From Porphyridium purpureum (taxonomy: Eukaryota), in the NCBI GenBank assembly GCA_008690995.1, contig VRMN01000001.1, positions 124,001 through 188,000 of the forward strand: 64,000 nucleotides of DNA. Direction: 5' to 3'. The notes beneath the pieces were generated by a model that saw only the letters and a program-made list of their open reading frames with translations, was not told the origin of the DNA and searched no databases. Within the stretch, counting starts at the first letter, position 1. The number at the start of each line of letters is the position of its first letter. Both the position numbers and the translations under genes were made by a program. This document shows positions 2,933-45,599 of the stretch, piece by piece.

Positions 2933-3826
2933 TGTTGGTACCGATGTACTTGTCTGCCGGAGGTAGGCGCTCCTGTGCGCGAGCGGGGAAATTTAGTTAT
3001 GGCGAGTTTGCGGCTTTTTGGGTGTAAAAGCGTGGTCTGGCGAGCGACCCGGCGGCAGCGTGACGGCAAATGGAGGAGGCCCCGGATTCAGGGAGTGAAA
3101 AGCGTAACTTTGCACTGTCAAGTATGAAGTTTTTGGTTTACTTCAGCGAACATTTCAGCAGTGAAAGAAGTGTTAACATAGTGGACTGCCGCAGCAATGT
3201 ACCGTGCGATACAGTGTACACCAATCGGGCGGGAGCATAGCTCAAGCAGTAGAGGAATACGTCCTCCTCGATGGCCAATGGAGTGGTGCGGCGATCGAGC
3301 TCACGCGAACGTGCTGTCCGTGGGCGTGTGAGGGATGTGGCAGTGCCGCAGTAACTAACAAATACAGCTTTATCGGTAGTCGATGAGCACGATCCAAGAA
3401 AACACTCCTTACCCGAAAGAGTGGGTCAGTGAGACCGTCCGCGCTCTCCGCCCGCTTATCGTCGCGGCGCGGTCCTCTACCCAAACTGTACACAACCACC
3501 AGGTGTACACCTAGTATGCGCAACACAAGCACGTAATGGCAGTACGAGATTGGGAAGCGGGGTTGGCGAATTCAGGACCGAAGGCGGTAGTCGAGCGACA
3601 TTCAGGATAGTGGCGGCCAATATGGTCTTTGACTTGAAGGCGAAGTAGAGAATGTAGAGCAGCACGGAAACTGCGATTCCTTTAGGATCTAGCTTAAAGG
3701 GAAACTCTCTTCCGTGGTGTGATAAAAAAGGGTGCTATTGTAAACAACAGAGTCTCTCATTTATTGGGCCTATTTGGTCAGTTGGAAGTGCACGTGGGTG
3801 CACGTGATCTCATACGCCCTTCTAAT
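2933..3826 (+). repeat. 5' LTR of the degenerate element, interrupted by a solo LTR of another family
   Basis: It ends immediately before the PBS-like motif. 3538-3826 is clearly similar to 11944-12265 (shared ACAGAGTCTCTCATTTATTGGGC..ATTTGGTCAGTTGGAAGTGCAC). The left boundary is approximate. Confidence 0.6.
3248..3525 (-). mobile_element. Solo LTR of the self-priming Copia family (28137-33995)
   Basis: The reverse complement aligns end-to-end with the 278-bp LTR at 28137-28414, with substitutions. Flanked by 5-bp TSD CAAGC (3243-3247, 3526-3530). Termini TGTTG...CTACT. Confidence 0.95.
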
Positions 3827-6800
3827 GTTTATGAGCCCTGCATCTGACACTGTGGAGAAGTGAAAATGGAGGAAACGCAGAGCAAGGATCTGGCATTATA
3901 CCGTACCTGCTCAGAAAGCACGAACCAGATGGATTACGAAGACCAGTCCGGTCCAGGAGCACCGCCGACGCCTCAGCAGGTGCGTCTGAGCACGTAACAG
4001 ATGCTCGAGGCCCGTCCCCTAGGGCAGAAGTCTTGGCTCTCAGAGGAGCCTGTTGCAATGTAGGCGCAGTTATCGGACCGATGGCAAGGGTGGGTGCGTG
4101 CCGTGAAAGAGCAGCACCAGGCACACGTCCGGACAGCACATGGGGCTGTACAACACCAGTATCAAGAACGTATGATGAGCTTGCAGGCCTCGCTGAAGGA
4201 GAAGCGTGTAGAGCTCAACCGCGTCAGACAGATGCAGGACGCTACAGCTAGACAGGTCGGACGCGCTGCCAAAACGTTTTCGGAGCCCGCTCAATTTGCA
4301 CGGACGATCCCGTATGGCGGCTCTAGAGATTTAACTGCCATCCTGATGTAGCAGAATGCTGCTCGAGAAAGGGTGCTCGAGCCCTTCAAGAACCCTTGAC
4401 GCGTGGATGGCCTACGTACTAGCGCTACGGTGGAAGCTCGCTTGGTCCGAGTTGCATCCACGTACCTGTACGGTGAAGCCATGCTATGGTATATGGATCT
4501 GGGCCCAAAGCCACAGCAGTTCGAAGGCTTCCTCGGGATGCTCATGGAGCAATGCTGCCCCGGTACCGCATACTACCAGGCTTGCGACGAGCTGGCTGCA
4601 CGTGTGCTGGACTCGAGGAGCATACAGGAGTACGAGGCAACATTCTCGGCCCTGATGTTACGTCTGCCCCGCCTCACGGAGGATGAAAAGATGGACAAGT
4701 TTAAATGCGGCTTGGCCACCCAAATTCGCGCCTTCATGCAGTTGGCCGAGCCAAAGAGGCTGCGCGAGACCATTCGGCAGGCCGTCAACACGGACGTGGC
4801 ACTGCATCCAGAACGCGCAAGGACTGCGTCAGCGGTCAGCATGCGATGCCATTTGTAGCCGCCTGAACGAATGGAGGTAGGCGCTGCCCAGATAATGCCC
4901 GCTGGATGGAGCGACGGAGGCACTGACTCTGCCAGATTAGGAGACGATGCTCGGCCGCTTAGCTTCAAGAAACGCGGTCAGTCGAAAGACACAACACACG
5001 ACAGGGCCAGGCGACCCACGCGACCTGGTCTTCGCATCATTCCGGCTGTCCGTCTCGAATGGGCGATGCCCCATGGCTCTGACGCCAGTGCCGGATCGGT
5101 ATGCTAATGCTGGAGTAGGCGTGGTCATATCGCTTGCGAATGCACAGCGACGGCCGTGCACTCGATGGAAGTCGAGGACTCCGACCTCGAGTTGAATGTC
5201 CTGGAGGACCGTCACTCCGACACCAAAATGGGTCCCGGCGATGGGCACGCTTGGTTCGCAAGCTTCTGGACACTGTATCATATCACTGCGCCCGTTGTAC
5301 CTTCTACGGGACCATCAGGTAGGATGGGGAATGATAGATACACTGTGGGACACCGTGGAACACAAAATGGCTTACTGAGGACTATTGCCATGGTCAACCG
5401 GTGCATGGTATATGCTATTGTGGACAGTGGGGCCAGCCATACGTTCATCTCTGCCGAGACAGCGGCCAGATGCGGAACAATACCGATCAAGAAGGGTTCG
5501 GGCAAGCCTCGCCTTGCACACAGCGACGAGATGGAGGCATATGGACGGTCGTTCGCGGACATAGCCGCTGCGGTCGCTATTTTTTGAAGCGTGGCCAATG
5601 GTTTTGCATGACTCGCCCCTGGAACGCATCCTTGCGCTCGACTTCATCCGCGAAGTAGGTTCAAGTTACAAGGTCACAGAGCTCCAGCTGCCGGTCGTCG
5701 AGGATACAAACAAGTCGATCGAGGATGAAATGAGCACCGGCAAGCAGGCGGAGCAAGATGTGTAGGGCCAGGGCAGCAGATTGGGGATCTCGGAATATCA
5801 GGCGGTGTCCACGAGTGACGAAGAAGGTGCCTGACGAAGCCGGCAGGTGCATGAGCACGCACTGCTGCGCTTTCCGGCGGATGACAAGTGCAACGTATGT
5901 TGCATAGCGAGGAAGCGACGAGCACGCGTCGTTCGCAGGGTACGGTCAGAGTCCACTAAATAGTCGTTGGAGTTCAACGACACTGTCTCAGTAGACTTGG
6001 TAGATCATGTACGGCCCTCAGTAAATATCTTTTCAGCCACTTGGATAAAGCAACCAAGTGCTTATAGGATACAGGCATATCCGACAAGACTACATCCTGT
6101 GCACTGAGGGCTTTTCAGGAGTTGCGACACGGAAGAGGATGGCCACACACTGTCAAATGTGACGACGGACGTGAGTTTCAGGGCGCATTGGAGGATATTC
6201 TGCGTAAAAACCTCGTCGCACAGGAGCTCGGAGTGCCCAACCGACCGAGTGCGCGTGCAACACATGAAAGACAGCCTGCAGACTTTAATGCTGGGATCCG
6301 AGCATAGCTTCTGCAAGCCGGTTTGCCCACAGAATGATACACATATGCAGTGCGCTACTGGACGCTCGCGAAAAACCTGCTATAGGAGCAGGACGGACAG
6401 ACCCCATTCCACCGACGTTTTGGGAAGCCAGGGACTGGGAAGTTGCCAGCCTTCGGCATGGGAGTCGTGGTGTACGACAACGCCAGAGACAGCAAGTCCG
6501 AATCAGCTGGTTGAATTGCAACAATGGTCGGCATTACCGTACCGAAACCATAGGGTGAACTTCTGCACGCTATCGTGCACGTGGTATTCGAAGACAACTT
6601 GAGCCCGGGTAGTATCAAGCGTGCACAAAAGTGGAAAGAGGTACCGGAGGCCCACCCACTGCGCAAACTGCGTCTCAGATCCCCGCACGAGCTGGAGTGC
6701 CTGTTCGACGCAGACCAAGCTGCGGGCTCCGGCGAGTCTGCCGATGTGGATACCTGTCACTAATGTGGCAGACCATGGGCAAAGATGCACCCGTAACCTG

Positions 6801-9723
6801 CGACAAATGCAGGCTTGGGAAGCGGCTTCGACTAAAGCACTTGGCTGAACCCGAGTGCGCCACAAGACACTGCAAATGCCCTAGAAACTCCGATGGCACC
6901 CTCGTATGGATTGAACGAGAAGTGGTCGAGTCACGTGGACAGAATGTACGGTGGATGGATGCCAAAGGCGCTGCATTGAAAGCAGGATTTGGCAAATGGG
7001 GGACCGCGATGGAGAGATAGCTGTCGCGAGCACGCCGACGACCTCGCACTCAATAGCCGCGTTCCTGGCGACCTACGCAGCCGCGCGTTCTGTATCGGTT
7101 TGCTGGCTAAGCAGGGCGCTGCACCTCCAATATGTATATTTTCGGGCCCAAGATGCTCCGTTCACCACGTCCGGCAGAAGGAGGGTAGCCCCGACAGCGT
7201 TCGAGGCCGACATACTGCCGTTTGGGTCGTCGGCGAGGGCCACGGATGGGTGAAACGCATGGCAGAAGGAGCCAAAGACCCTGTATGAACTTGGAGTGCT
7301 CCAATTCGAAAGTGCTGTGGAGCACGACGCTGTCGCGCGCCAGATGGGGGCCCGATTTGTGAAGCTCAAGGGCATCATGGCAATCAAGAATGCGGAGATG
7401 CCAGCTGAGTATCGAAAGCGCAAGTTTAGAAGTGTTGCGTATGGCTGCATTGTGAAGGAGGGCGATGGTAGACTAGCAGAGCCAGACCCATTTCCGTACG
7501 ACAAGCCACCGGGGCTCATGAGCATCAGAGCCTTCATGAGCTACTGAATCCATACCTTTGCCCAGGACGCGGATGCAGCATTATTCGATGTCGATTCGGC
7601 CTACCTGCACGCCCAGCTTGGTGACAGACAGACGTACAGGGAACTGTCGGCCATGATGCCGCATTTGGAAGGTGCGCTAACAAAGCGCGCAGGGTCGAAA
7701 CTGCCGTCGATAAAACAACCGGTGCTGCGATAACCATTGTCGCTGAATGGACTGGCAAGGTCAGGGTCGGACTTTGCTGCGCGTGCCAGATGACAGCTGG
7801 TGGAGAAACGCTGGCGCGAGTCGAAGACCGATTCGAACGTCTACTGGAGGCGCGGCAGAGAATGCTGCATTACTATTCTGGTGTTGTATGTGGATGACGG
7901 TGCGCTGTTCGTGCATTGAGATAGTGTGCGAGCTCTAGCGAGGGAGCTCCGGACATCTGCCACCATCTCAAAAGATATGAAATACGTGTCCTGCACATCG
8001 AGTGAGAATCCCATCCGGTACCTGGGCGTGTCTAAATACGCAAGAGGTCAAAGTTGAACTCTGGAATCGACCGACTAGGGAATGCACGTGGTCACAGATA
8101 CACCACAATGTCGTCAGCGTAGCAAGCCGCCAAAATATAGAATCGAACCGAATACGGAGTTGCGATTGTGCCCTGACGGTGTGTGCAAAATTGTTGGACA
8201 GTTACTCTGGCTCTCGAGGATGACGAGACCCGAAGCTGCTCGTGTTGTGGCACAGGTTGCATGATGCCTGGATAGATGAAAAGCGTTAGCCAAGGATGTC
8301 CTTGAAAACGTTCTCCGGTACCTAGCAAAGCACCAGCACGTGCTAATGAAGTATGACTTGTCTGCGTCGGCGCACGGCAGCATAGCCGTCGAGTGCATGG
8401 CGGACGCTGGCTTCGATCTGGGCACGTCCACATCCGGTTACTTGCTTTTCACAATGTGTGGTGGAATAAAGCACTTTGTGCCATGGTGCTGAAGGCGTCA
8501 GAGGCGAGTGGCCGCTTCGACAGTCGAGGCTCAGCTGGTCACGATACACGCAGCGGTGCAGGGTGATGTGTTTCCTGTCGGCGTGTTGTCGGAAGAGGTG
8601 CGTGGCAGGCGGTCGACAACAGTTCTGCGCCCGCATAACGAGGCTGCCTTGAAAGCAGTGGACGGCGATCCTACCAATGCTCTGACCCATGCAAGCAAGA
8701 CGCAAAACATTAGCTTGCGGTGACTGTGTGAGGTGGGGCGGGATGGGCTCGTACACTATGGACACGTGGCCACGAGAGCCAATCTGGCAGATGCTATGAC
8801 AGAGCCTCTCGTTGCCGATGTGTTCCTTGCTCACATGTGCCATTATGGATTGTGGAGTCAAGCGTTCTTCGCATCTGTTGGAAATGCTACCGAGCGAGCG
8901 CCGTCTCCTGAGCCATCGGCAGGCACCGGGACCAGCTAGTTTACAATCGGAAAAGTGTGAGGATGTAACGGTTAAGGGGCGTCGTGTTAGGTTTTGAGGT
9001 CATCTTGTTACAGCGAATTCGCAACGAAATCCCTAGATTTAGGTGATTGAGGGTGGTCATGGATTTTTCCTCAGCGGGTTCGCTTTTTACCATGATTCCA
9101 TCAATGTGTGCTATTGTTTCACATGAATTTGCCCGATTTACTATCCACCGTGGGCGAACAACCCAAAAGGGGGCGCTTGGAAGTAAATTGGGGTTTGACC
9201 TTGTCTGCCCACTGATTACAGCTAGTGAACCTCCGCTGTACTGTGTTGCGGCCGCGAGGGAAACTAAACAACCAGGAACCGCCTTATCCGCGCCCGCTCC
9301 CTCCAGTGGCCTGGCGGCAACCCCAACCACCGAAGAATCCCCTCAAGCCAATGTTTACGAGTTAAATCAGCCTTCCTCTAGCTCCACCCCTCTGACTCTC
9401 TTCCTGACGCTCCAACCAAGAGTCTTTTTTACATATTCATATTTTTATACCCGCTGGCGTCCAAACATGTCCGCGCTGTCTCACGTCGCAGCGCCGACAC
9501 GTGTCCGCTTCCATTCGCCAACACTTTGCGCGCGAGCGCATCGCCCATCCTCTCCAGCCTCTCCTCCCGTCTCAGCTCCACCTTGCCCTTCCTACTCCCA
9601 CCTCTGCTGCTTCGGAAAGGCCCGCTCGTATTCACCCTCCGCCTGCCGCTTGCGCTAAACTCCATTCATCCCTTTGCAACAAGTGTACCGTTTGATACAG
9701 TATACAACCGTCGGACAGGTGTA

Positions 9724-11117
9724 AAGCAAGTGGCAATCAATTAAAAGCGCCCCTACTTTTTCACTTTTTCCAACAAAAAAGATAATTTTACGGCAAAGCG
9801 ACAGAAGGTCGACCTTGCCGTGGCCGTTGCAAGCGTCCAAACGATTAAAAACACAACAGGCAAACACGCATTCCAAGCTTTACAGCGCGTGGAGTTAAGC
9901 CCGCGGCGGGGCAAAATCATGGGCAAGGCGTCAAGCCTCGTTGAATGAGAACAGGGCGTCATTGCTGCTTTGGTTGCTGACCGTCACTAATCGCAGGTTA
10001 TCGCGGACCGACTGGGACGATCTCGCTCAGTAACGGTCGTGAGGAACTATTTGAAACGCCCGGAACAGTACGGCAAACGGGGACCGAATCAAAATGCTGG
10101 AAAACGGACACCTTACCTGCGCCCAAGGATTGAGAATGTCCTGAAAACAAAGCCATTGTCTAGGGCAAACCAGGTGCACGCAGGCATCTTGTCAACACGT
10201 GCCAAGCCAGCCTCAGTACAAACGGTCCGCCGTGTCTTTCGAAATGGGCACATGTGGAAGAAGTGCAAGAAAACGCCGCATTTGTAGGATCACCATCGAC
10301 AAGCTCGTGTCAAATTTGTGCTCGATCACCACTGGAAACGAGAAGAATGCCGAGATGTCGTGTTTACAGACGAGAAAAAGTGGAATTTGGACAGTCCTGA
10401 TGGCTCGAAATTCTATTGGGCGGGTCTGGAGGACAAACCAGCCGTCCGTTTGAGTCGTGTTTGTGGTGGACAGAGCTTGATGGACTGGGAAGCGATAGCC
10501 GGCGACGGAAAGCTTACTGTCTTGTTCACAAAAGACTACTCCTCGGGCGGCGCGACTGCCGCAAAATACGTGGAAATGTTGGACAGGTCTCGAGTCATTG
10601 TGAAGGCTAAATAAAAGATTGGATACTTCAAATTCATGCGGGACGAGGCCGCTTCCCACAGGGCCAAAATCACGACTGACTGGTTGCAACGCAAAAACAT
10701 AGAGGTTCAAGATTGGCTCGCGCTTGCGCCAGACCTGAATCCAATTGAGAATGTATGGGGCCATTTGACAGGTCAGGGTTACCGTGGATGCAAGCAGTAT
10801 TCTGGTGTGAAAAGCTACGAGAGGTCGGCGAGGATTCGTGGGAGAAAATGGAGGATTGCTTCGTCAGAGACCTGTATGACAGCATGTCGAAGCGGATCAT
10901 TGAAGTGGCTTTGGTGCAAGGAAAGACAGGCCGCTTCTAGAACTTGATTTTATCTTTCAATCTTCTGGTGAATGTGCTCAACCTTCGCTGCCTTTAATCG
11001 TTTATCACTTCCTTTTCGCGCCAAACAGTCGACCTTCACCAAGTTTTGACAAAGTTTACCTTTTTTGTTAGAAAAATTAAAAAAGTACGGTTGTTTTACA
11101 TTGATTGTTGCTTACTG
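9724..11117 (+). mobile_element. Degenerate Tc1/mariner DNA transposon
   Basis: TA flanks at 9722-23 and 11118-19. Diverged about 90-bp terminal inverted repeats (ending in GAAGGTCGAC / GTCGACCTTC). Transposase motifs VVFTDEKKWNLDSPDG and APDLNPIENVWG. Confidence 0.9.
9919..10940 (+). pseudogene. Tc1-family DD34E transposase pseudogene
   Basis: Starts MGKASSL with an early TGA. Fragments 10039..10287, 10318..10614, 10636..10947 and 10755..10940 carry Tc1 motifs separated by stops and a frameshift. Confidence 0.9.
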
Positions 11118-11688
11118 TATACGTGAATGAAAGCTTCGCACCGAGCACCTGGCGTCCGCGACTGCTGCTCTATTCAACCACACAGAAGTTATTTGCTCAC
11201 AACCGAACCTTTATTATGCAGCCTGTCGGCAAACGAACCACGATCACTATTTACTTGACCGAACTGAACCGAGATGAACGCTACCGATGACAACCGCTGT
11301 GAAATAGACCTTTGCGCATGCCAAGCTCGCTCCTCACGCATCGGCGCACCTCACACACACGTGCATATCTGCTCGACGCACTATACCATACGCTTCTTAA
11401 TATAGTTCCGCGCACGGGAGGAGCCACTTTTATTCCTCGGACAGCAGAAAAAGAATTCTCTTTACATCCCTTGGCGGCAAAAAGATATGAACCTACCTCC
11501 TCGCCCTTACTTCACACCGGCCGTTTCGTCCGCTCTGGTTCTAAAGTGCCACTCGCTTGAGCGAACGGGCCTGTTTTCTCCTTGTGTCACGCACGTCGAC
11601 CATGATACGCTGGACGCTCATTCGTGCACACCCTGCCAAGTGTACAGCACCGATGTATTCTCTTGCCAACATTTGTGCCAACAGTATA

Positions 11689-12266
11689 TGTTGTAGAGTA
11701 AGGAACTGGCCTGAAGTACTGTGGCGATCGTCGGCTCATACACGAGTCGTTGGTTGCGGGGAAAAACCTGGCCATCAGCAGCAAAAACAATAGCCGTCTG
11801 TTGGTCAAAGTGAAGGAGTGAGGGGCAAGGATTTAGAAAGTGAAGAATCCGCTTCTGCACCGTATAGTAAAAGTGTTCGGGTATTTCGCAAAAGCCTTTC
11901 TGAGCGTGGCGTGCGCTTCAATAGTTTAGCGTAAGAACTCAGCGGCAGTGTGAGATTGGGAAGGGGCATTAGCGAATGTGGCAAGGTGTACAAGTGCGCG
12001 ACCGTCCACAGTCACTGTGTACGAATTCAGGACCCGACGCGGTGGTCAAGCGGCCTCTGGGACCGCAGCGACTGTGACGGTGTTTGACTTGAAGGCGCGG
12101 TATAAAATGAGGAGCAGAACGGAAGCTGCGATCAATTTTGGACCTAGCTTCAGCGGTGTGATGGAAAATGGTGCTAGTGTGAAGAACAGAGTCTCTCATT
12201 TATTGGGCATATTTGGTCAGTTGGAAGTGCACAGGGATCCATGTGATCTCAGACTTCTCTCCAACA
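11689..12266 (+). repeat. Isolated LTR related to the 2933-3826 LTR
   Basis: Terminal inverted repeat TGTTGTAGAG...CTCTCCAACA. Internal similarity to 3110-3826. The 3' end CTCTCCAA matches the end of the intact Myb-element LTR. No TSD found. Confidence 0.7.
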
Positions 12267-13032: not shown

Positions 13033-14754
13033 TCAGCGTCGCTTTCGTCGACCACGGAAAAACTCCCGAAACGTTCTAGCTTCTTCCTCGGAGTCTGTCA
13101 AACCTTCGACTTTCCCTTCTGCTGCTGCTTCGGCTTTTCTGTACCATTCCGCAGCGACTGCTTCATCGGCAACCGCGCCGCCTATGCCAAACTCGTAGTA
13201 CTCACCCATTTTGTCCATGGCATCGGCCACACCTTTCGCGGCTGCCTTGCGATACCAATTCAACGCCTTGAATTTGCTAGAAAGAAGTCCTCCTCTTCCA
13301 TACTCCTGGAATTCAGCAAACTTGCACTGGGCCACGGCGTGCTCTTTTCTTCCGGCCTTGAAGTAAAAATCCCGTGCTTTTGCATCGTCCATAGGTAGAC
13401 CACCTTTTCCCCACTCGAAAAAGTCGCCCGCATGGAACTGCGCTTCGGCGATGCCTTGCTTGGCGGCTTTGAGATACCATACCGCCGCCTCTGGTTCATT
13501 TTCTTGAAGACCCAGCTCCGCACGTTCATAGCAACGGCCCAACCTCAGCTGCGCTTCAGGGGCGCCGCCAACGGCTGCCTTGAAAAGCCATTTGACTGCT
13601 TTCTTGTGATTCACCGGGAAGCCATATTTCCCGCGCTCGTAAAAGTCACCAAGCTTGTACTGCGCGTCGCAGTCCCCTCCGACCGCAGACCTACGGTACC
13701 ATTTGACCGCCCTACGCTCATCCATATCAAGTTCTCCTTTTCCATACTCATAGTACAAGCCCAGCATGTACTGTGCGTCGGGGTCTCCACCGAGAGCGCC
13801 TTTGCGAAACCATTTCGCCGCCTCACGCTCATTTATGCGCAGTCCTCCCTCTCCGGACTCATAGCAGGTCCCCAAGTTGAACTGTGCTGGAGCAAAGCCC
13901 CGCCATGCTGCTTGGCGATACCAAAACACCTCGCTGCGATGGTTTGGCCGAGCGGAGCCTTGTCCCTGACCGACGCAGATGGCCAACCTATTTTGCGCCT
14001 CGACATGTCCTTGCCTTGCGGCGCGGAGTAGCCAAGGAACCGCGAGTCTGTCATCGGCTCGCATACCGCATTTCCCGTCCAAGTAGCACTGGCCCAGCTT
14101 GAACTGCGCGTCCGCATGACCCTCCATGGCCCGCTTCTCAATGGCCTCCCTTTCCATTCGCTGCACTTCACGCATGCGCGCTTCGGCAAATAAGCGCGCA
14201 AGATTCGGCTTCCCGCGAACTCCGCTCATATCCGAACCGTGCGCGAGCATCCCTTTCCTGTCGCACGACAGGCCCAGCGCATTCTTGGCTTCGTCGTGCC
14301 CTTGCAAGACAGCCTTTTGCCACCAGTCGACCGCCGTGTGGTAATCTACTCCAAGCCCAAATTTCCCGAGTTGGTAGCAGATGCCCAGTTGATACTGCGC
14401 CTCGGCATCGCCAGCCTCTGCAGCCCTGCGGATTGCTTCTCCCTCTTCTCGATCCGCATATCGCCACCAAGCTCGGCCCCCGGCAGGAGCCACTGTCACG
14501 CGTTTAGACGTCGCGCTGCAAAAACTGCTCGCACACAGACCACGCGTTCCCGACCATGTCGCGCCGCACACCACAGGGAGTCCATGCGTGGTCGACGCCG
14601 CAGCCGTTGTCTCGACAAAGTGTCCTGGCCGCCTCGTCATAAACGTGCTTCTCCACTTCATTGTCAGGCGCCACTCTGGGCGAATACCGCCTCCGCGCAG
14701 CGCGATACCGGCGCGCGGACTCACGCTGCGTACAACGCACCAAGCTCGCGCCAT
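13033..14754 (-). CDS. SEL1-like repeat protein (about 10 repeats), probable mitochondrial presequence
   Basis: 573-aa ORF with repeated 'AQYxLGxxYExGxxGLxxDxxxAxxWyxKAAxxG'; Arg/Ser/Ala-rich, acid-poor N-terminus. Confidence 0.93.
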   Translation of the reverse strand: MARAWCVVRSVSPRAGIALRGGGIRPEWRLTMKWRSTFMTRRPGHFVETTAAASTTHGLPVVCGATWSGTRGLCASSFCSATSKRVTVAPAGGRAWWRYADREEGEAIRRAAEAGDAEAQYQLGICYQLGKFGLGVDYHTAVDWWQKAVLQGHDEAKNALGLSCDRKGMLAHGSDMSGVRGKPNLARLFAEARMREVQRMEREAIEKRAMEGHADAQFKLGQCYLDGKCGMRADDRLAVPWLLRAARQGHVEAQNRLAICVGQGQGSARPNHRSEVFWYRQAAWRGFAPAQFNLGTCYESGEGGLRINEREAAKWFRKGALGGDPDAQYMLGLYYEYGKGELDMDERRAVKWYRRSAVGGDCDAQYKLGDFYERGKYGFPVNHKKAVKWLFKAAVGGAPEAQLRLGRCYERAELGLQENEPEAAVWYLKAAKQGIAEAQFHAGDFFEWGKGGLPMDDAKARDFYFKAGRKEHAVAQCKFAEFQEYGRGGLLSSKFKALNWYRKAAAKGVADAMDKMGEYYEFGIGGAVADEAVAAEWYRKAEAAAEGKVEGLTDSEEEARTFREFFRGRRKRR

Positions 14755-16448
14755 CTCACTGCCATCATCACGTCACGCTTGCGCCCGACGAGCTCGAAGT
14801 CGCGCCGCCGCTGCCGCCGCTCGTCGAGTTCGTGTCGCGCTTGGACGCCGAACGCGCAGGCTCGTTGCGGGTTTCCGAGCTAGTTCTGGCCCCGTGTCGC
14901 AGACAGGTTGACGATGTAGAGCGACGCGAAAGAGTCGCCGAGGCAGTGGTCGGCGCGAACACGGTCGTCGGGCTCCCGGCAGCGCGTACGCTCCGCAAGA
15001 TGGCCGTGGTCGTGCGGGCAGGGGATAATCGGGAGGCTGGCCGTGCGCATACCGGACATTTGCGCTGACGGGCGCGTCCAAGTAGATGTCGGAGGCTTCA
15101 GGCTACAGGATCTTTTAGAGAATCCCTTCGTAGCACAATTTGCGGCAGGCGCTGTTAATTAACATGTGGACCCGGCGGCTATCGCATACTACGGTGGCAT
15201 GCGCGTACTGGTTCCACATGATGTCCAGCGGCCTGCAGGCCTTTGGTCGATCTATGGCTTCACGAGGCCGAGGCACGTGCCGGAAAGCTTTCCGCAGAGG
15301 AGGTCTTTCGTATATCTGCTATTGGACGTCATGCCCACGTTGTCGCAGCAAAGTATCGCACGCGACTCCCAGTTGGCGACCAAAATGCACGCGGCCATGC
15401 AGCTGCGTGCGATGCTGGAAAGTTGCTTGCCTTTTGGCGTCGAGTCTCCTCGTCGGACTTGGCGTGGCCGCTTTGATAAAAGCCCCAGAGCATTATGTTC
15501 CGACACGGCACCAAAGTCGCAGCCGAGCACCTCGCAGAACACGTAGCCATGCGTTCCAAGCAGATGGTGCGACAGAACCACGCAGACCGCGAGGAAGAGG
15601 CTCGTTTCAACCGATGACGGCACGGTTGTCGCGGCTGATCGGGCTATGAGGGCCCAACTTTTGGGCGTTCCCAAAGCCAGTCGAGTCATATTCGTTTCTA
15701 TGCTAGTGGCGGCAAACCAGCACGTTATCATGGGCCTTGGCTTTGGGACTCTCGACGGGACTTTGCTCTGCTTTAGGGAAACGCTCCTTTTTTGTTGTTG
15801 TTGTTTTCTTCCAAAGCGCGATGCTCGTGTCGACATGTACTTGACTCTAGACAGATTGCCAGCCGGCTTCAATCTCGATCTTCTTGCTTGCTTGGCCTAG
15901 CTGGTGTCTGTTTCTGTCGTTCAGCGGTCATTTGTAAATCTTTTCGAGCAGCTTTTGGCCTTTTAACCTGGCACAAACGCCAGAAAGACGCGGCGACGAA
16001 TGTACGATGCAAGCATTCCGGCTTCTGTGGAAAGCTAATGTACGAAATGTTCAGGTGGTCCAGATGCAAGTGGATCGCCCACAGACGCAAAGGAGGTACT
16101 TTGCAGTCCTTGCTAGACTGAAGTGCTCGCTCATGCGGAACCAATCGCCACAAAGATCATCTTCGCAAGCGAATCGAGTTCCCTACACGAAGCGGTATCG
16201 ATGGATGAAGCTCACATCACACGACCGCGTGCAGCTGGGAAAATACAAGAAATTCGCAGTGTGACAAAAAAGAATTCTGATACTCGTCACTTGAGAGCTG
16301 GCCGACAATAATTGGCAAAGAATACAGCCGCCCAGAGTGGAAGATAGCAGTTTCACACCCAAAGCTTCGGCTCGGCGGACGGCCTTGAGGTCCTTCGTTT
16401 CATTAATTTGGAGATCGCATCATGTCGGGCGAATGCATTTGAGGCTTC

Positions 16449-17552
16449 TCACTCGAGACCCTTTTTACACCGATTGTACCATTCCTCAGCTTTTTTCTTG
16501 TCGATCGTAAAGTCGCATGTGCCGTGTTCGTAGCAGTAGCCCATATAGAATTGAGCTTCTTCATAGCCTTGCTTCGCGGATTTGCGGTACCACTTTGCCG
16601 CTTCGATCTCGTTTATCGCAAGACCGCCCTTTCCAAACTCGTGAAAGAAGCCATACCAAAACTGCGCAGGTGCATGACCTTGCTTGGCGGCTCTGTGAAA
16701 CCAATATATAGCGGTACGCTCATCCTCAGGAAGCCCACCGTCTCCATGATAGTAGTTAACACCCATTTCATATTCGCCAGGAGCATGAAACTGGTCTGCT
16801 GCTCTGCGGTACCACTCCAGAGCCAAACTCATATCAAGTCGAAGCCCTCCTTTCCCACTTTCGTAGTACTGACCTAATCTTACCTGCGCATCTGGGTCTC
16901 CTTGTTCGGCCAACTCGCGAATTCTGCGAACGCCATCATCTTCAGTGCCACCGTCACTTTCGAGAACGACCTTCTCCAGCCAGTCCTTCTCTGAGCCCTT
17001 GTTCTTTGACGCTGGCTCAGAGTCTGTCGGGCGTTCCTGGACAATCTCAACTTTGGAGGGCGTGTTCTCTTCATCCGCGCCGTCTGCAATTCCCTCAGAT
17101 TCGCGCTCCTGTCTCGCGTGAGGACGAGCACCGTCCTCCATAACTACATCGTCAGCGCCTGCCTGTCGCTCTTCCTGGTCTCTCGGGAGGTCAGCTGTGT
17201 CTGCAAACATGCGCACGCCGCTCCAGCTCAGCCAAGGTTTATGGCTCATTTCTGTGCGAGATACCAAACCGGTCGTCGCCACAGGCGCAGAACATAGATT
17301 CGCCTTCTGTCTGGCCACATCACTCCGTCGCACAATGCGGGCACGAAGAAAGGCACTTGCCCGACGGCTCATGCACGAAGACATGTAGCACGCCTCGGCA
17401 CTGCTCCACGTGCGGCCGCGCACGGCGCGAGAAAAGACTGCAGACTCGCGCAGCCTGCACAACTTGATTGGGAGAACGCAGGTCATTTCTCTTCTTGACG
17501 CCAGACTCGTCTGCTGCCAAATGGACGTGACAGAACCAGTGCTTTCTTGCAC
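16449..17552 (-). CDS. SEL1-like repeat protein
   Basis: 367-aa ORF with about 4 C-terminal SEL1 repeats (GDPDAQVRLGQYYESGKGG...). The true start may be a downstream ATG. Confidence 0.9.
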   Translation of the reverse strand: MQESTGSVTSIWQQTSLASRREMTCVLPIKLCRLRESAVFSRAVRGRTWSSAEACYMSSCMSRRASAFLRARIVRRSDVARQKANLCSAPVATTGLVSRTEMSHKPWLSWSGVRMFADTADLPRDQEERQAGADDVVMEDGARPHARQERESEGIADGADEENTPSKVEIVQERPTDSEPASKNKGSEKDWLEKVVLESDGGTEDDGVRRIRELAEQGDPDAQVRLGQYYESGKGGLRLDMSLALEWYRRAADQFHAPGEYEMGVNYYHGDGGLPEDERTAIYWFHRAAKQGHAPAQFWYGFFHEFGKGGLAINEIEAAKWYRKSAKQGYEEAQFYMGYCYEHGTCDFTIDKKKAEEWYNRCKKGLE

Positions 17553-18040
17553 GCCCCCGGCGAATAACGAGTCCGGGGCAATTTTGCTGAATGCGTGTAT
17601 TCACTCGCCGACCACCGCGAGAGGACTAGAGTCAGCACACCGCCCGACGGAAGCTGCACAACCTTGGCATCAACTCAACTTTCCCGGTGCCAAGTCGACC
17701 TTGTCCGTGGATTGGATGGAAAATATCTAGCGCTTGGCCAGCAGCAGCGAGAAAAAGGCGAGTCTTGGAAGACACTGGCTTTATGAGAGGACAACAACAG
17801 GCACGCGGAGCGGACTTCGGTGTTCATTTGATATCGAGAGAGACAATCGAACTGCGTGGCAACAAATCGCTGCGCCGTGCGGACGAAATGACAAGGCGCC
17901 ATCGAACGCGACCTGAACCATCGTTCTGCATTGACCGAATACCTCGACCATCCTCTGAATCGCCATGGTTTAAAGCCATGGAGCTTTCGAGGCCAGCCCG
18001 CTCGAGTCCAGACCAAGTCTTGTGCACAGGTGGCGCATTT

Positions 18041-19183
18041 CTAAGCGCCCTTTACATTCGTCGGACGAGACAAACAGTACAGTTCTATTTTCTCCTTCGC
18101 AGGGCCCCAACCTTGATCTGCAGCCTTGTAAAGCCAGAACGCTGCGATACGGGTGTCTTCAGGGAGGCTAGCTTCTCCGTGGTAATACAACAAGCCCAAA
18201 AGTGTCTGTGCAAGGTCGTAGCCTTGGTCTGCAGACTTGCGGATCCAGTACACAGCTTTGGCCTCGTCCAGCGGAACGCCTCCTTTACCGTGATACAGCA
18301 TCACACCCAGGTTGAACTGCGCTTGGTGATTTCCCAGCTTGGCGGCTTTGCGAGTACACACAATTCCCTTTTCAGTGTCGTATTTCAGGCCTCCGGTTTC
18401 ATTCATGTAATTGACGGCCATCTCAAACAGCGCTCCGGCATGATCCTGCTTCGCAGCTTTACGATACCACTCGACCGCCGCTTTTGGATTTTTTTCGGCG
18501 CCTCGTCCTTCCTCAAAAGCCATGCCGACGCAGTACTGCGCCTCGGCGTTTCCTTGCTGTGCGGCTTTCAGAAACCAGTCGAACGCCTTGAAGTGATCTG
18601 ACTCGAGACCGCATTCTCCCTTTTGATATGCGACGGCCAAGACGAGCTGGGCAAGCACGTATCCAGCATCTGCCGATTTTCGAATCCAGAGCAGCGCCTC
18701 AGTAGAGTTTCCTTTGTCCTTCTCTCGTAGCCCGCGCTGGCACCACGCCTCGCTTTCGTCACCTACTGCTTCCTCGCTTGCTGGCGCTTGCGGAGCGGGC
18801 GGATTCGGGTCTGCTTCGCGTTCAGCATGATTCTCAGATTTCGCGGCATTCAGAGTTGCCTTGACTGGATCGTACGGTGGTAGTGTGTTGGAACTCGACG
18901 CTTCACGTTGAGAATCCCTTGGGCTGTCATTACCTACAATCACTCCCGTCAAACGACGAGCCGAGTGTGACGACGCCCGCGTGATAGACACAAGCCTACC
19001 CGCACGCATTGCTGCGACTCTGCTCGTCGACGACGCTACGGTTCCGAATCGCGCTGGAGTCACGCTTCCGCGAAGCCAATCTCGCGGCGTGCTCCACACC
19101 GGCCCGCCACACGCAACCGTATCTCGCGTGCACGAACGCACGACCGCGCCGCGCGCGACGCGCAAGCAGCTCACGTTCCTCAT
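18041..19183 (-). CDS. SEL1-like repeat protein, probable mitochondrial presequence
   Basis: 380-aa ORF with about 5-6 SEL1 repeats (GNAEAQYCVGMAFEEGRG...) and an Arg-rich N-terminus. Confidence 0.92.
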   Translation of the reverse strand: MRNVSCLRVARGAVVRSCTRDTVACGGPVWSTPRDWLRGSVTPARFGTVASSTSRVAAMRAGRLVSITRASSHSARRLTGVIVGNDSPRDSQREASSSNTLPPYDPVKATLNAAKSENHAEREADPNPPAPQAPASEEAVGDESEAWCQRGLREKDKGNSTEALLWIRKSADAGYVLAQLVLAVAYQKGECGLESDHFKAFDWFLKAAQQGNAEAQYCVGMAFEEGRGAEKNPKAAVEWYRKAAKQDHAGALFEMAVNYMNETGGLKYDTEKGIVCTRKAAKLGNHQAQFNLGVMLYHGKGGVPLDEAKAVYWIRKSADQGYDLAQTLLGLLYYHGEASLPEDTRIAAFWLYKAADQGWGPAKEKIELYCLSRPTNVKGA

Positions 19184-19321
19184 TCCGTCCGGCTCTCCTC
19201 CACGTGCCGCACCACGCGCATGCTCGACGCTGTTTGCACTGCGGAACGTTGCTATGTCGATTGGCGAGTGCAGCAGTCTGGATATTTACGGAGCGAGCTG
19301 GTACTGCGGTCGGTAGCAGCA

Positions 19322-28136: not shown

Positions 28137-28414
28137 TGTAGTGTACACTGGGTGTACACCTCGTGGCTGTGTACAGTATGGGTAGAGGAGCGCGCCGCGA
28201 TTGTAAGCGGCCGGAGAGCGTGGACGGTCTCACTAGCCCGCTCTTTCGGGTAAGGAGTGTTTTCTTGGAGCGTGCTCGTCGACTACCAGTAAAGCTGTGT
28301 TTGTTGGTTACTGCGGCACTGCCACACCCTTCACGCGCACACGAACAGCGCGTACGCGTGAGCTCGATCGCCGCACCACTCCGTTGGCCATCGAGGAGGA
28401 CGTATTCCTCTACT
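28137..28414 (+). repeat. 5' LTR (TGTAG...CTACT)
   Basis: Direct repeat of 33718-33995. Confidence 0.97.
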
Positions 28415-28429
28415 CACGCTCCAAGAAAA
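28415..28429 (+). promoter_or_regulatory. Primer-binding site complementary to the element's own LTR (28260-28274)
   Basis: CACGCTCCAAGAAAA abuts the LTR end and is the exact reverse complement of TTTTCTTGGAGCGTG. It has no TGG start (complement of tRNA CCA). Confidence 0.85.
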
Positions 28430-28462
28430 TCTGAGAGTCTGCGACACCGGTGACAAACGAGA

Positions 28463-29572
28463 ATGTCACGTGTCGGACAAAGCGGCGCAGGCCGTTCGCC
28501 GCACCCACGCGAAGCCGGTCTTGTAGAGACACTTCCGCTGCTCACTTACGACAGCACGCGTGTGGTGCCGGCCGCGGTGGTAGTTTGGGTCGAGGAGCTC
28601 GGCAACTACTGCAAGAAGGAATACGGCGCTATCGGCACAGCGTTTGCGATAGAGCGCCAAGGACGCGTGTACCCCACCTTGCCGACGATCCCGCAAGCAA
28701 CCCCAGGGCTCGGGGAGGCGGGACGGGAGGATTGGTACAGCGCCACCGTCGCCAAGGAAGAGCTCAAGCTGGCGCTCGCGGCGCGCTCGGACGCGATACG
28801 CAAGGACAAGGAAACTCGCGTGCGCGTGTTTGGACTCATCATGGGCCAACTGAGCCGCGCATCTAAGGAAGCGCTGGCCGTAAAGCCCGGCTGGAGTCAA
28901 CTCGTACGAGAATCGGACGATCCGCTGCAGCTTCTCGAGCGCGTGATCGAGGCGCACCTGACCCGTGGCTACGACGACCCGCTGCGTAACCAGCAGTATG
29001 CTCGCATGTCGTACGATCAACTGAGAGTTGGAGCAGACGAATCACTTGTTTCGTTCAAGACGCGCTTCAAGGCAGCGGTGATGGCCCTTGAAGCCGTGGG
29101 CGAACCAGTGCCGTCTTCCGAGCGCTGCGCGGCTGACTTTATCCTAAAGCTTGAAGGTACGCGCTGGGACGAAGCCGTACGCAAGTGCAACAACGAGCAC
29201 CGACGGTTCGACACGGTCGACCAGGCAATGTCTTTCATGGCGCAGTTCGCGTACGCGAAACAACCGGTACAGGGTCGCACTTGGCGGACGGACACCGAAC
29301 ACCCAGAAGACGAGGACACAGATGATGTGGAGCTCGCAGCAGCACCACGCGTACGCGAATGCTACAACTGCGGCGCGGATGATCATCTCCTTCGCGACTG
29401 CCACGCGCGACCGCTGGACAGCGGAATGGCCGATAGGATGCGCGCGGCGAAGGAGAGGCAGGCGCGCATGGCGAGGCGCGACACGCGCGGACGCGGGCCG
29501 GTGCTGGCCGGGGCGACGGAGCAACAGCTGCGGGCCGCACTTGACGCGTTGAAAAGGAACGCCGATGCATGA
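28463..29572 (+). CDS. gag: Copia Gag with CCHC zinc knuckle
   Basis: 369 aa; 'CYNCGADDHLLRDC' knuckle; ends in TGA in frame with pol. Confidence 0.93.
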   Translation: MSRVGQSGAGRSPHPREAGLVETLPLLTYDSTRVVPAAVVVWVEELGNYCKKEYGAIGTAFAIERQGRVYPTLPTIPQATPGLGEAGREDWYSATVAKEELKLALAARSDAIRKDKETRVRVFGLIMGQLSRASKEALAVKPGWSQLVRESDDPLQLLERVIEAHLTRGYDDPLRNQQYARMSYDQLRVGADESLVSFKTRFKAAVMALEAVGEPVPSSERCAADFILKLEGTRWDEAVRKCNNEHRRFDTVDQAMSFMAQFAYAKQPVQGRTWRTDTEHPEDEDTDDVELAAAPRVRECYNCGADDHLLRDCHARPLDSGMADRMRAAKERQARMARRDTRGRGPVLAGATEQQLRAALDALKRNADA

Positions 29573-32500
29573 CGGTGTGCGACGTGGCCCACGGGCTTCG
29601 GTGACGAGATACCTTTGGGTCTCGACACCTGCTCGGGTGTTCACGTCATGAAGGATAAGGGGTTAGTCCATCGGGTAAAGAAAATTGACGAGTATTTGCT
29701 GCTGTCCGGAATTGACGCGCGGGCGAGCGAGCTGGCCATCGGGCACGGCGGTGAGACGGCCTTCGGCATGGCGTACGTCAACGAGAACCTTGCAGGCAAC
29801 GTGCTGTCTATGACCAAGCTGGTCGCGGAAGGGCATGATGTACGCTTCGACGCGGATGAGAACCGCTTCCGCGTACGCGTGCCGAACTCCAAGCGCTGGC
29901 TGGTCTTCGCGCCCGATGCACACGGAATGTACACTGCGATGATACGGCGTGCAGATCTCGTGCACACGACGGGCCCAGCATACAAGAAGGCAGCCACGAA
30001 TAAGGACAACCGGAACAGCTGCCGGGCCGGTCCATCGTCTGCCAAGGCTTGGACCTCAAGCACAATCACGACGGTCGCCAGCAACCTTGCCCGATGCACG
30101 GTACGCGAGGTTGAACGCGCACGCGCCGCTCGCTCTCTGCAGGCGAGGCTGGGATTCCCATCCTTTGGTGTGCTGAAGCGCATGCTTCAGCGCGGGGACA
30201 TAAGCAACTGTGACGTCACGTCGGCGGACCTCGAGCGTGCGAATGCAATCTGGGGCACTCCACTGCCGTGTGTGAAGGGAAAGACAACGGGACACGCGAC
30301 ACCGAGGCTGTCTGAAACGGTCACCACTGGTCCCAAAGCGCGCCAGGTGATGCACTCCGACCTGATGTTCATCTCGAAGGTGCCTTTCCTCGTGTCGGTC
30401 TTGAAACCGAGTCAATACATCCTGGCCACCGAGCTGAAGCGGAAGGACGCGCCTTCGGTGCGCGCGGCGGTGCAGCGGCGGTTGAACGAGGCCCGCGGGC
30501 ATGGAGTGCAGATACCTGAGATTCGGTTCGACCGTGAAAGCGCAGTCCTGTCGCTCTGGATCGAGTTGATGGAGGCCGGCATCCTGCCCGAGCTAACCGC
30601 GGCAGACGAGGTGGTGCCCGCCGCTGAGCGAGCGATTCGCCTTCTAAAGGAAAGGGTCCGCACATTGTCGTACGACCTGCCGTACACCATGCCATTATGC
30701 ATGCTGCCGGGAGCCGTGGAGTTCTCTCGACAGAGACTGAACATGGTGACGAGCGAGGCCTCCGACGCGGGCGAACCGGCGCACGCCATCTACTTTGGTC
30801 GTAAAGTAGACGCGAAGACGGACCTACGTGCTCCATTCGGGGCGTATGTCCAGGCACATACAGCGTCCGTGGACAGCACGATGAGGCCCAGAACGTTGGG
30901 CTGCCTCACCCTGCATTCCGCCGAGAATGCTGCGGGAAGCTGGGTGCTCATGAATCTGAACACACTGAAGCCCATCGTCAGACAGGTGTGGACAGAGCTC
31001 CCGGTACCGGACCACCTGATCACGTACGTAAATGCGCTCCCAACCGTGGCAGGCATCGACGATGGCGATCAGGACCTCGGCCGCACGGAGGTGGAACTCT
31101 CGCAGGAGGAAGACAAAGAGACGGCGGAGGTCGAGGCGGCGCTGAAAAACGGCGGGCCGGTCGACGAGCCAGCGGCGGAGGGGCACACGTATCTGGACCA
31201 GCCAGAAGACGCGGTACTGCGTGAACAGGCGCAGACTCCGACACACGCCGACACCGATCACCCCGCACCGGCGGGCGCCGACGTGCTGAGTAAGGATGAG
31301 TCACCGTCCACTCCCACGCAGTTGCGCATGGAAGAGATGCGACGTGCAGCGGATTCACTCTTCGAGGCGGGGCGAGCAATGACGCCAACGACTGCGGAAG
31401 CGACCGGCGAGGGTCTGCCAAGCACGGACGCAGTACTGCCGGAGCCGCTTATCGTGGCAGAATCTGTGGAAACCCATGTGCCCGAGGAAGAGGCGTCGAC
31501 TGATCCACCCGCTACTGCCGCACGGCCGCACGGCGACGCCACAATCACCAGTCCGGACGCTTCAGACGGCGAAGCGGCCTTGACCCCCTCGGTCGCCGAG
31601 GTGACAATGGAACAGGCCAAAGCGCGGGTGGAAGCAATTGAAGAGAAGCTGCGAGCGCTGGAGGAACGTGAGGCGCGTCTGCTGAGTCAGATGACCACGG
31701 AGCCATCGTACGCGGACGCCGTCCGAAATGCGGTACCGCGCACGAGCGAAGCCGAGCATGCCCGCGCCGTCAGCTCTCCGCGTCGGACACGGAAGCGGAA
31801 AGCAGAAGGGACATTCCCGGACGTCGAGCGCGAAAAGAATGAGCGGCTATCGCGCCGCGAGAAGGAACGCCTGCGTGTACGGCGCGCGCCGGAGGTCGTG
31901 GTCGCCCTGAAACGAGAGGCGGAGGACTTGCTATCTTCTGCGATGCCGGGAAAGCGCAGACACAAAACGCTGAGGATCGGCGTACGCCAGGCGATACGCC
32001 AATACGGTATGGAAGGACTCAAGGCGATTGTCGCTGAGCTGTTGCAGCTGTCCAAGCACGGTCTGGACGTGCTGGAGCCGGTCCACGTGCACACGCTCAC
32101 GAAGAAACAACGAGACGGGATCATACCGTCGTTCATGTTCGTGAAGGAGAAGCACGATGCTTCAGGCGCCTTGGAGAAAATCAAAGCACGAATGGTGGCC
32201 GGCGGGAACGAGCAAGATCGATCGGAGTACTCCGACTGTTCGTCCCCCACGGTGGCGACCGAGGCTATTTTCTTACTGGCAGCCGAGGCAGCGAGAAGCG
32301 GTGCCGCAGTCGCCACGATTGATTTCCCCGGGGCATTTCTCAACGCAAGCATCCCCGACAGCGACCCACACACGTACGTGAGGATCAACAGAAACCTGAC
32401 CGGGCTGCTCGCCGCCGTAGATAAGCGCATGAAGCAGTTCGTCAAGAACGGTGTTCTGGTCTGCAGGTTGAAGCGCCCGTTGTATGGATGCATCGATGCG

Positions 32501-33631: not shown

Positions 33632-33717
33632 GGCGTACGCATCGTCTCGTGTGACTCGCTTCGCCGTCGGGTGGCTTGTGTGGAGCGGGTGGTAGCTTCC
33701 ATCGCGGCGAAGGAGTG

Positions 33718-33995
33718 TGTAGTGTACACTGGGTGTACACCTCGTGGCTGTGTACAGTATGGGTAGAGGAGCGCGCCGCGATTGTAAGCGGCCGGAGAGC
33801 GTGGACGGTCTCACTAGCCCGCTCTTTCGGGTAAGGAGTGTTTTCTTGGAGCGTGCTCGTCGACTACCAGTAAAGCTGTGTTTGTTGGTTACTGCGGCAC
33901 TGCCACACCCTTCACGCGCACACGAACAGCGCGTACGCGTGAGCTCGATCGCCGCACCACTCCGTTGGCCATCGAGGAGGACGTATTCCTCTACT
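33718..33995 (+). repeat. 3' LTR
   Basis: Identical to 28137-28414; preceded by purine-rich GAAGGAGTG (putative PPT). Confidence 0.97.
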
Positions 33996-39856: not shown

Positions 39857-39884
39857 CAATCTCAACCTTCCACCTCGCAATAAA

Positions 39885-40198
39885 CGTGGGAACGATGAGG
39901 TCCCGCTGAACCGCGGACTCCCGTGTTCACTTGGCCGGCGGTGCGGCATAAGTACGTTCTGTGGAGCGGCCGGGTCCCGGCCGGATAACTAGCGAAGATA
40001 AGAGACTCTTTAGCGTGGTGAGGTAAAGGTTCGTCGTTTATTCGGAGCGATAGGGAGCCGGCGCAGAATCGTCTGCGCGCCTCGAAGAGTCCGCCATATT
40101 AGTGGCCCACGTGTTGCACGTTTCGCCGTGCGCACCCGCACCCCTTTCGGGCGTAGCATCGATCTTTCTCGGCCGATCCCTTGGAGCACCTCTCCAAG
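39885..40198 (+). repeat. 5' LTR (CGTGG...CCAAG)
   Basis: Direct repeat of 45134-45447. Confidence 0.96.
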
Positions 40199-40213
40199 GG
40201 TTATGAGCCCAGC
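40199..40213 (+). promoter_or_regulatory. PBS complementary to the anticodon stem-loop of initiator tRNA-Met (half-tRNA primer)
   Basis: GGTTATGAGCCCAGC abuts the LTR. Its complement GCUGGGCUCAUAACC contains anticodon CAU, the same PBS type as Drosophila copia and yeast Ty5. Confidence 0.88.
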
Positions 40214-40495
40214 GGCGGAAGCCGTCTGCGCGTATATTGATCACATGCTTAACTTCGTGTTCGCTTGATCGGTCGTGGGTTTATTTGGTTTGTATCATCT
40301 TTGCTTCGGGGAGTTGGCTCGTGTGGAACGTCGGGTGTCAACTTCGGACGCGGTCGTTGTGTCTCGCTTGACATCGACCCCAACCGCGATACGGAGCTCG
40401 TGAGTGATAGAATCAAGAAGCGAAACAGTCCATCGCCTGGACCATCACGAGATCGTCGCGCCAGGAGGCGGACCTCGTGATCATAACTGTCGGTC

Positions 40496-45088: not shown

Positions 45089-45133
45089 ACCTCGAGACAG
45101 AGTGGAGTCCGGTGATTTGCGCGTGAGGAGGCG

Positions 45134-45447: not shown

Positions 45448-45599
45448 ATAAACACTGTACTCGGTGTACTCGGTGTACTTAGTGTACAGTTGCGCCCGAG
45501 CGTTTTGTGGAAGGCCGACTTGGTGGTGAGTGTGGGAACGGCCAGTGAGTTGGGAAAAGTGGGAGTGTTGGACGCGCGAGTGCGATGCGTGGTGGAGCG

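Follow-up and report, generated by a model that had tools for sequence, protein, structure and literature searches.

Does the segment at 6945–7110 of a 64,000-nucleotide stretch of Porphyridium purpureum DNA (the window; contig VRMN01000001.1, positions 124,001 to 188,000) hold the remnant of a Myb domain, as a sequence-only reading proposed after joining two frames across a 1-nt shift, and, if so, what would such a domain do in a retrotransposon? The window consists of eukaryotic DNA in which genes are dense and long ORFs run without interruption. The segment belongs to a decayed coding region (4121–8825, +) in the order gag, protease (PR), integrase (IN), Cys module, Myb, reverse transcriptase (RT) and RNase H, which shows 35% identity to the ORF of an intact family member in the same window and carries 24 stops and 7 frameshifts over 1565 aligned codons, one of the shifts within the Myb. 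Upstream of it lie a primer-binding-site-like 12-mer (3827–3838, +), with one mismatch to the corresponding site of the intact element, and a probable 5′ LTR relic (3527–3815, ends approximate, +) about 74% alike to 11933–12254.

The remnant of the Myb-like three-helix domain occupies 6952–7105 (+), beginning at Trp 1 and ending with GLL, between the IN and RT of this Ty1/copia-order element. Both frames and the one-base shift between them agree with the description in the reading: the first frame is open through Val 6946 and Trp 6952 up to Gly 7000–7002 and, after one extra base, the second runs from Pro 7004 to Leu 7105. A frameshift-aware alignment placed amino acids 873–922 of the intact ORF onto 6949–7105 with one +1 shift near 7003 (approximately 7000–7003), and the alignment was gap-free between Trp 1 and Trp 2, with a two-residue insertion after them.

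With 16 identities over 48 aligned codons (33%) and no Pfam match when the decayed pieces were scanned singly, the resemblance could be thought a chance product of joining frames. We aligned amino acids 870–921 of the intact ORF against 571 nt centered on the remnant and allowed frameshifts in the nulls as well. The remnant scored 61, a value reached by 0/300 dinucleotide-shuffled DNA sequences (26.0 ± 3.7, maximum 43) and by 0/300 shuffled proteins (mean 27.6, maximum 56), while the adjoining 52-amino-acid linker pieces of the intact ORF scored 25 and 25, reached by 219 and 226 of 300 shuffles. The IN core and RT pieces, for comparison, reached 138 and 139 against the decayed element. When both strands of the window were scanned, no peak outside the intact element was higher than that of the remnant, which ends at 7102; the runner-up there scored 42. 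The Myb segments of five of the six database relatives also matched the remnant above the null (at most 1/100 shuffles reaching the score), the exception being P0006 (13/100). The homology thus withstood the test set for it beforehand, a comparison with shuffled sequence. Given the shuffle nulls, the window scan, the collinearity between IN and RT and the matches of the relatives, chance alignment is refuted and its probability practically negligible.

The intact family member spans 39885–45447 (+), with LTRs of 314 nt (39885–40198 and 45134–45447) that are 100% identical and end in CG...AG, and is flanked by a 5-bp target-site duplication (TSD; 39880–39884 and 45448–45452). Its single ORF of 1530 amino acids (40496–45088, +) encodes a Ty3-type Gag, a CCHC knuckle, a retropepsin protease, an integrase, the Myb-like domain, an RVT_2-type RT and RNase H. 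The Myb-like domain lies at 43097–43252 (+; amino acids 871–922 counted from 40487), and the Cys module is absent in front of it. By Pfam, the integrase lies upstream of RT–RNase H, which is the copia order; the RVT_2 match had E 7e-4 in the window ORF and 1.1e-7 in the relative P0002, and the rve match E 6e-8 in P0007. The LTRs and the short TSD are those of a Ty1/copia element, supported by an empty site in run X1. The termini are not TG...CA, the CG...AG ends being given by the TSD and by junctions in other runs, and the copia-type Gag and protease families PF14223 and PF22936 found in plant copia were not matched, PF03732, PF19259 and PF13975 being matched instead.

The primer-binding site of the intact element (40199–40213, +) directly follows the 5′ LTR, and its complement holds a CAT anticodon, which may indicate half-tRNA-Met priming. 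The 64-kb window contains no tRNA genes. Half-tRNA-Met primed copia elements, with a primer-binding site complementary to the tRNA-Met anticodon arm, are described for Osser, Bryco and Gymco-II (PMC6317226). The closest database protein to the intact ORF shows 99% identity over the searched region and is named P. purpureum, as are seven of the eight matches in the protein search. The first ATG of a CCB1 gene is 182 nt away from the insertion, which lies upstream of it and is oriented away from the gene; a further transcript lies on the other side of the insertion. A second copia element, unrelated to the intact one and Myb-less, is found at 28137–33995.

The sequence-only reading had considered the linkers around the Myb unalignable. 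This was correct with respect to the intact window copy, and it failed for the upstream flank, which aligned to P0006 and P0007 with scores of 98 and 76 (null about 30, 0/200 shuffles each). The aligned region (6755–6879, +) has the pattern C-x2-C...C-x2-C-x9-H-x5-C-x4-C-x-C, a C4-H-C3 ligand order predicted to bind zinc. In the decayed copy it is interrupted twice, by a stop (6761–6763) and by a frameshift located somewhere in 6764–6799; starting at 6790, one open frame joins the module to the first half of the Myb and contains five of the eight ligands and a Cys at 6799, with two more Cys upstream across the shift. In a sliding profile, the module formed a separate peak against P0007, with z up to 18.7, that was absent against P0003. 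The intact window copy, which is without the module, scored 31 and 25 against the region; the decayed copy keeps the Cys/His module and the Myb, the intact one the Myb only.

We searched 1.84 billion representatives with a profile; the resulting list of 150 proteins included 144 new ones. The Cys/His module was present in 22 of these 144 by the strict pattern and in 34 by a rebuilt profile, its carriers coming from JGI, ENA, Logan and MMETSP records as well as from Porphyridium, and in the members inspected it sits between integrase and RT. All eight C4-H-C3 positions align in 24 pattern-selected rows and follow the ligand order of PHD fingers. The PHD spacing is H-x2-C...C-x2-C, whereas the module has H-x5-C-x4-C-x-C; family scans of the alignment gave no Pfam match and marginal hits in PHROG (E 0.085) and NCBIfam (E 0.063). 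PHD fingers have a cross-brace two-zinc fold; over residues 17–43 the P0007 model has pLDDT <50. The upstream "linker" of the decayed copy is a second conserved module, unclassified, and one that is brought out here at the integrase C terminus of a wide copia clade.

The assignment of the downstream domain as Myb-like is supported by sub-cut-off matches to PF00249 together with a three-helix model that matches TRF1 and c-Myb. PF00249 was matched by seven out of seven named relatives, all below the cut-off (E 3.3e-5 to 0.19); against the gathering cut-off of 24.4 bits, the scores were 14.6 for the whole ORF, 20.9 for a fragment and 24.3 for whole P0002. The match in the intact ORF was weak and covered amino acids 871–917. 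In the trimmed alignment, 7/9 members matched (best E 4.8e-7), and the alignment profile matched c-Myb (E 1.5e-5) and Tbf1 (E 2.1e-5). The AlphaFold model of P0007 predicts helices at 69–82, 86–90 and 102–112, with pLDDT of 92, 89, 69 and 91 by ten-residue block over 71–110. Its best match in a wide structural comparison was the Myb domain of hTRF1 (rmsd 1.3 over 49 residues), at a modest Z of 6.5 that falls in the range given by common helical arrangements, and the top 13 matches were all Myb-family domains. SANT domains were among the structural matches at Z 5.0–5.1. Foldseek with the same model gave no match at E ≤ 0.001, the best Myb having E 0.18, and folding the tail of the intact integrase from its single sequence gave a pLDDT of only 36.8.

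Trp 1 and Trp 2 of the Myb are kept, also in the decayed copy, and the third of the regular three Trp is Ala in most aligned rows. Six of seven members have a basic domain, that of the intact window copy with pI 10.7, and P0003 has a neutral one (pI 6.9). The telobox consensus of helix 3 ends in Trp-Arg. This signature was absent, and the pattern (L/V)-R-(S/A)-(R/K/H)-A was read in 10 of 12 aligned rows. The predicted fold and these residues support a Myb-like domain that is not a telobox. Its basic pI and the target motif of the intact family, described below, bear only indirectly on whether helix 3 would bind DNA sequence-specifically.

The reading had also regarded the domain as ancestral to the lineage and as kept by purifying selection. 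Among the 144 new representatives, the Myb profile matched 5 in the first round and 6 in the second, the latter covering 158 proteins including cluster members. All six further carriers are named P. purpureum, as are all Myb carriers for which a source name was seen, and the profile matched none of 25 non-Porphyridium copia proteins. We inferred an RT–RNase H tree of 21 rows, picked from a tree of 68 rows, in which the decayed and intact copies fell within a 10-row clade supported at 100/100. Since 9 of the 10 rows carry the Myb, the domain is supported as ancestral to this clade; the exception, P0058, is the sister of the decayed copy (94/93), and its lack of the Myb reads best as a loss. The Myb-bearing P0067 and P0068 fall outside the clade, where they share an unresolved branching with rows that have no Myb; at least four changes are required. 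The ancestry proposed by the reading is therefore upheld for the clade and confined to a sub-lineage: the domain is patchy just outside it and was not found in the wider group. The Cys/His module, being far more widely spread than the Myb, is probably the older of the two.

When five non-redundant members with long ORFs were compared pairwise, identity averaged 40% in the Myb vs. 17% in the upstream and 27% in the downstream linker, with 57% in the IN core and 52% in RT, which supports purifying selection on the domain while the lineages were active. Identities by codon position (0.38/0.48/0.29 for the Myb and 0.47/0.54/0.26 for the linker) did not separate the two and so gave no evidence of selection. 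The selection claim therefore applies to active lineages and does not extend to the decayed copy, with its 24 stops and 7 shifts. Scans for related loci detected no relative in metagenome and viral contigs (0/381 and 0/144 stretches), and six metagenome loci found by the LTR-end pattern were rejected, all being chance matches of 19–25 nt. A word-based search with the Cys module and Myb of P0007, whose cluster has 16 members, returned P0007 alone, and scores in the ESM Atlas went up to 0.79, below lead level.

To study the target sites of the intact family, we mapped public runs onto the intact element, which exposes the flanks of other copies, and listed the consensus rows of the loose ends. 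Distinct insertion sites were counted by their 5-bp TSD and blended rows were left out. At five of the six distinct sites among the listed rows, GTACAGT or its complement begins at a distance of exactly 6 nt from the end of the LTR. This offset equals the TSD plus one base, and the TSD sequence differs at every one of the five sites; the motif occurs in both orientations. At the window site it lies on the right (45454–45460, −). It lies on the left in a single contig of X4 and in a single contig of X11, the latter site also covered by X23 reads, and in both cases the TSD is echoed on the right. Reads of the RNA runs X22, X23 and X24 have the motif on the right, followed by sequence unlike that of the window, and a single contig of X1 has it on the right too. 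The sixth site, seen in X4 and X22, has no motif on the right, the sole side seen. An X1 contig joins the left and right flanks of the window with one copy of the TSD and thus represents the empty site. Because X1 holds this site, the window insertion is polymorphic, and because the empty site already has GTACAGT, the motif predates the insertion.

The rows left out as blends were X24 before 45134 (agreement 0.73), which has the motif at the 6-nt offset, X23 before 39885 and 45134 (0.78), which covers the site of the X11 contig once more, X11 before 45133 (0.67), X9 behind 45447 (0.77) and X23 and X24 behind 45447 (0.56 and 0.62); the blend of X4 behind 40199 (0.57) was used for the TSD match alone. 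The chance of at least five motif sites out of six was 5e-16 at the non-coding motif density of the window and 5e-11 at a tenfold density; as the motif and the offset were picked after seeing the data, we applied a hand-estimated correction, which leaves a chance of about 1e-10. The Myb-less copia of the window, a very distant control compared with the close Myb-less relatives P0058, P0059 and P0071, showed no motif at the 6-nt register on either flank, be it the full copy or a solo LTR. We rejected telomere targeting, as the telobox signature is absent and the sites are interstitial, and an origin of the motif from Tc1/mariner termini (TA plus CAGT), as the sequence past the motif is different from site to site. 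That sequence also differs among the 15 GTACAGT copies of the window, family-B LTR copies excepted.

How could the Myb-like domain and the motif be connected? We give even chances to the reading that the locus preserves a decayed Myb-like domain behind a red-algal copia integrase and that, in active members, this domain binds the intergenic motif and sets the place of insertion. The Myb-like domain would then stay on the integrase after cleavage of the polyprotein, helix 3 of the intact-family Myb would read GTACAGT, and a rigid distance from the Myb to the active site would give the fixed offset of 6 nt. The benefit might be the avoidance of genes in a gene-dense genome. In such a history, the Myb may have been added to an older integrase with the Cys module, and subfamilies may then have lost one or the other. 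The stricter form, a copia-order integrase turned sequence-specific by its own Myb and inserting at a fixed offset from a 7-bp word with no host tether, falls somewhat short of an even chance in our judgment. The target recognition of R2 by a zinc finger and a Myb, as described in PMC13586686, is a precedent.

A host protein sitting on GTACAGT in promoters could instead place the insertions by tethering the integrase in the style of Tf1/Sap1 or Ty3/TFIIIB, the Myb-like domain then serving as a SANT-like contact with protein or nucleosome. GTACAGT is indeed a host intergenic word, with 15 copies observed in the window against 3.4 expected, 14 of the 15 outside ORFs and the copies often paired near gene starts, and because of this enrichment it is probably bound by a host factor; the missing third Trp and the SANT domains among the structural matches point in the same direction. 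Tethering is also the known route in yeast elements (PMC7175516, PMC5371812). However, the motif starts one base past the TSD, and a host protein bound there could be expected to collide with the integration complex. Furthermore, histone-binding SANT domains are acidic, unlike the mostly basic domain found here. On balance, we hold host tethering to be possible but clearly the lesser prospect.

Unlikely, in our view, is a read-out of the target by the integrase core or an SH3-like C-terminal part, as proposed for errantiviruses, the Myb then having another task, for example binding to the LTR or cDNA ends of the element itself. The motif falls within the expected footprint of an integrase, the Myb and the Cys module have each been lost in some long-ORF relatives, and the errantiviruses, according to PMC5408687, combine sequence-specific integration with non-TG/CA ends, comparable with the CG...AG of the intact family. 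Yet errantivirus targets are described there as the short palindromes TATA, CGCG and ATAT, whereas GTACAGT has 7 bp, lies outside a TSD that varies freely, and has to be present on just one side. Also against this reading, no GTACAGT is found in the intact family's LTR. Very unlikely is a captured host fragment with a non-targeting role, the motif being linked to the insertions by open promoter chromatin or by insertion survival. Intergenic DNA, in which insertions survive, is indeed enriched in the motif, but neither survival nor open chromatin can yield a base-exact offset of 6 nt at five sites in both orientations, and the fixed register largely refutes this explanation. Direct reading of GTACAGT by a Myb on the integrase would be the most economical account, and we compared it with known systems.

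In element type there is a likeness to the CoDi-A Ty1/copia of diatoms (Llorens et al. 2009, PMC2774666), described with copia order and an extra module at the integrase C terminus; there the module is a putative chromodomain and in Porphyridium a Myb-like HTH with or without C4-H-C3, the comparison being one of domains alone. Chromodomain families were absent from the Pfam matches of the window ORF, of 8 relatives and of 32 further proteins. The chromoviruses of the Ty3/gypsy group likewise append a targeting domain to the integrase but have gypsy gene order and, as presented in PMC12477314, read histone marks over regions and not a base-exact DNA word. In R2 (PMC13586686), a zinc finger followed by a Myb recognizes the target at a fixed distance from the cut; R2 is a non-LTR element with target-primed reverse transcription, N-terminal C2H2 fingers and one rDNA site, and the likeness is functional only. 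Tf1/Sap1, Ty1, Ty3 and Ty5 are LTR elements of compact genomes that are directed to intergenic sites, but the steering goes through integrase contacts with host proteins (PMC7175516, PMC5371812); the biases of Ty1, Ty3 and Ty5 are attributed to such contacts in PMC7175516, the portion of which available to us does not mention "Myb." The errantiviruses gypsy, ZAM and Idefix (PMC5408687) share sequence-specific LTR integration and non-TG/CA termini, and differ in belonging to the gypsy group and in their 4-bp palindromic targets. The repeats of TRF1, TRF2, Tbf1 and c-Myb (PDB 1w0t, 8x6d and 1h89) share the three-helix fold, the first two Trp and the basic character; they have a third Trp where Ala is found here, and the Porphyridium domain has neither a telobox helix-3 signature nor a telomeric repeat as the associated motif.

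A survey of 4,811 plant copia consensuses reports no domain gains and, in the text at hand, does not mention "Myb" (PMC9289625). The term was likewise absent from the accessible text of PMC2774666, PMC3248453 and PMC6317226, and in that of PMC12477314 it was used for host genes only. Our literature search, with subscription journals and Repbase reports outside its scope, found no Myb in an LTR integrase and no copia targeting in Porphyridium; the targeting of LTR elements, as found described, uses chromatin marks, host tethers or short palindromes. As an accessory module at the integrase C terminus, the Myb belongs to a known type of arrangement, and the base-exact target motif is the new aspect. 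If the proposed targeting is true, direct read-out by a copia integrase that has a Myb of its own and a base-exact target would become an additional route, parallel to the zinc finger and Myb of R2, and would explain how the intact family can stay active in a gene-dense genome. Cargo could then be placed on either side of a 7-bp word lying outside the duplicated target, and the Porphyridium subfamilies, with varied helix 3 and with or without the C4-H-C3 module, would form a natural series of differently aimed integrases.

The targeting idea lends itself to direct tests, since one family is intact, has inserted recently and is transcribed. Expression can be assigned to the family and not provably to the window copy, since many reads carry other letters. 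Two of the three RNA runs had a depth of 0–0.75 over the Myb of the intact ORF. In the third, X23, reads covered the whole ORF, with a depth of 4.5–5.6 at the Myb, and ran in the sense direction relative to it, as judged by host genes in the same mapping.

The LTRs of the intact, Myb-bearing family end in CG-TG...CA-AG (39885-39890 and 45442-45447), so that the canonical TG/CA lies 2 bp inward from both ends. These termini are confirmed by the target-site duplication and by junctions from other runs, and the terminal dinucleotides look as if they had been left untrimmed.

The family's target word, GTACAGT, occurs at 15 positions in the window, a 4.4-fold enrichment; the occurrences are almost all intergenic and frequently come in pairs, and the word is a candidate promoter element of Porphyridium. 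At the loose end before 45134, the public sequencing run X24 gave a blended consensus row whose left flank holds an inverted pair of GTACAGT around a 6-nt spacer. If this row is part of the insertion site seen in run X1, the element there is flanked by the motif on either side, an arrangement that would fit a two-fold symmetric integration complex.

Within the coding region, Gag and protease (40496-42000) matched Pfam families of Ty3/gypsy type, whereas the order of integrase, reverse transcriptase and RNase H is that of copia. All five named relatives whose sequences extend across the region share this combination. Directly 3' of the intact Myb domain lies a basic tail (43253-43320), which might serve as a minor-groove arm or as a nuclear signal. 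In a comparison of five members its conservation is 43%, and both the decayed copy and the database relative P0007 lack it. Another relative, P0085, found by a profile search of representative proteins, carries an AAA_28/NTPase domain C-terminal of RNase H.

A second copia family, without Myb, is present at 28137-33995, with identical LTRs of 278 nt, an in-frame stop codon between gag and pol, and GTACAGT within its LTR. Its solo LTR at 3248-3525 (minus strand, 89% alike) is placed at the 5' end of the decayed element. An element with terminal inverted repeats (9697-11125), which looks like a decayed Tc1/mariner, separates the decayed copia ORF from the probable relic of its 3' LTR; another element with terminal inverted repeats, at 61918-63358, has DDE_3 and Tc3 HTH matches. 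Three adjacent ORFs at 13033-19285 are built from repeats of 36-37 residues, which by eye look like the Sel1 type.
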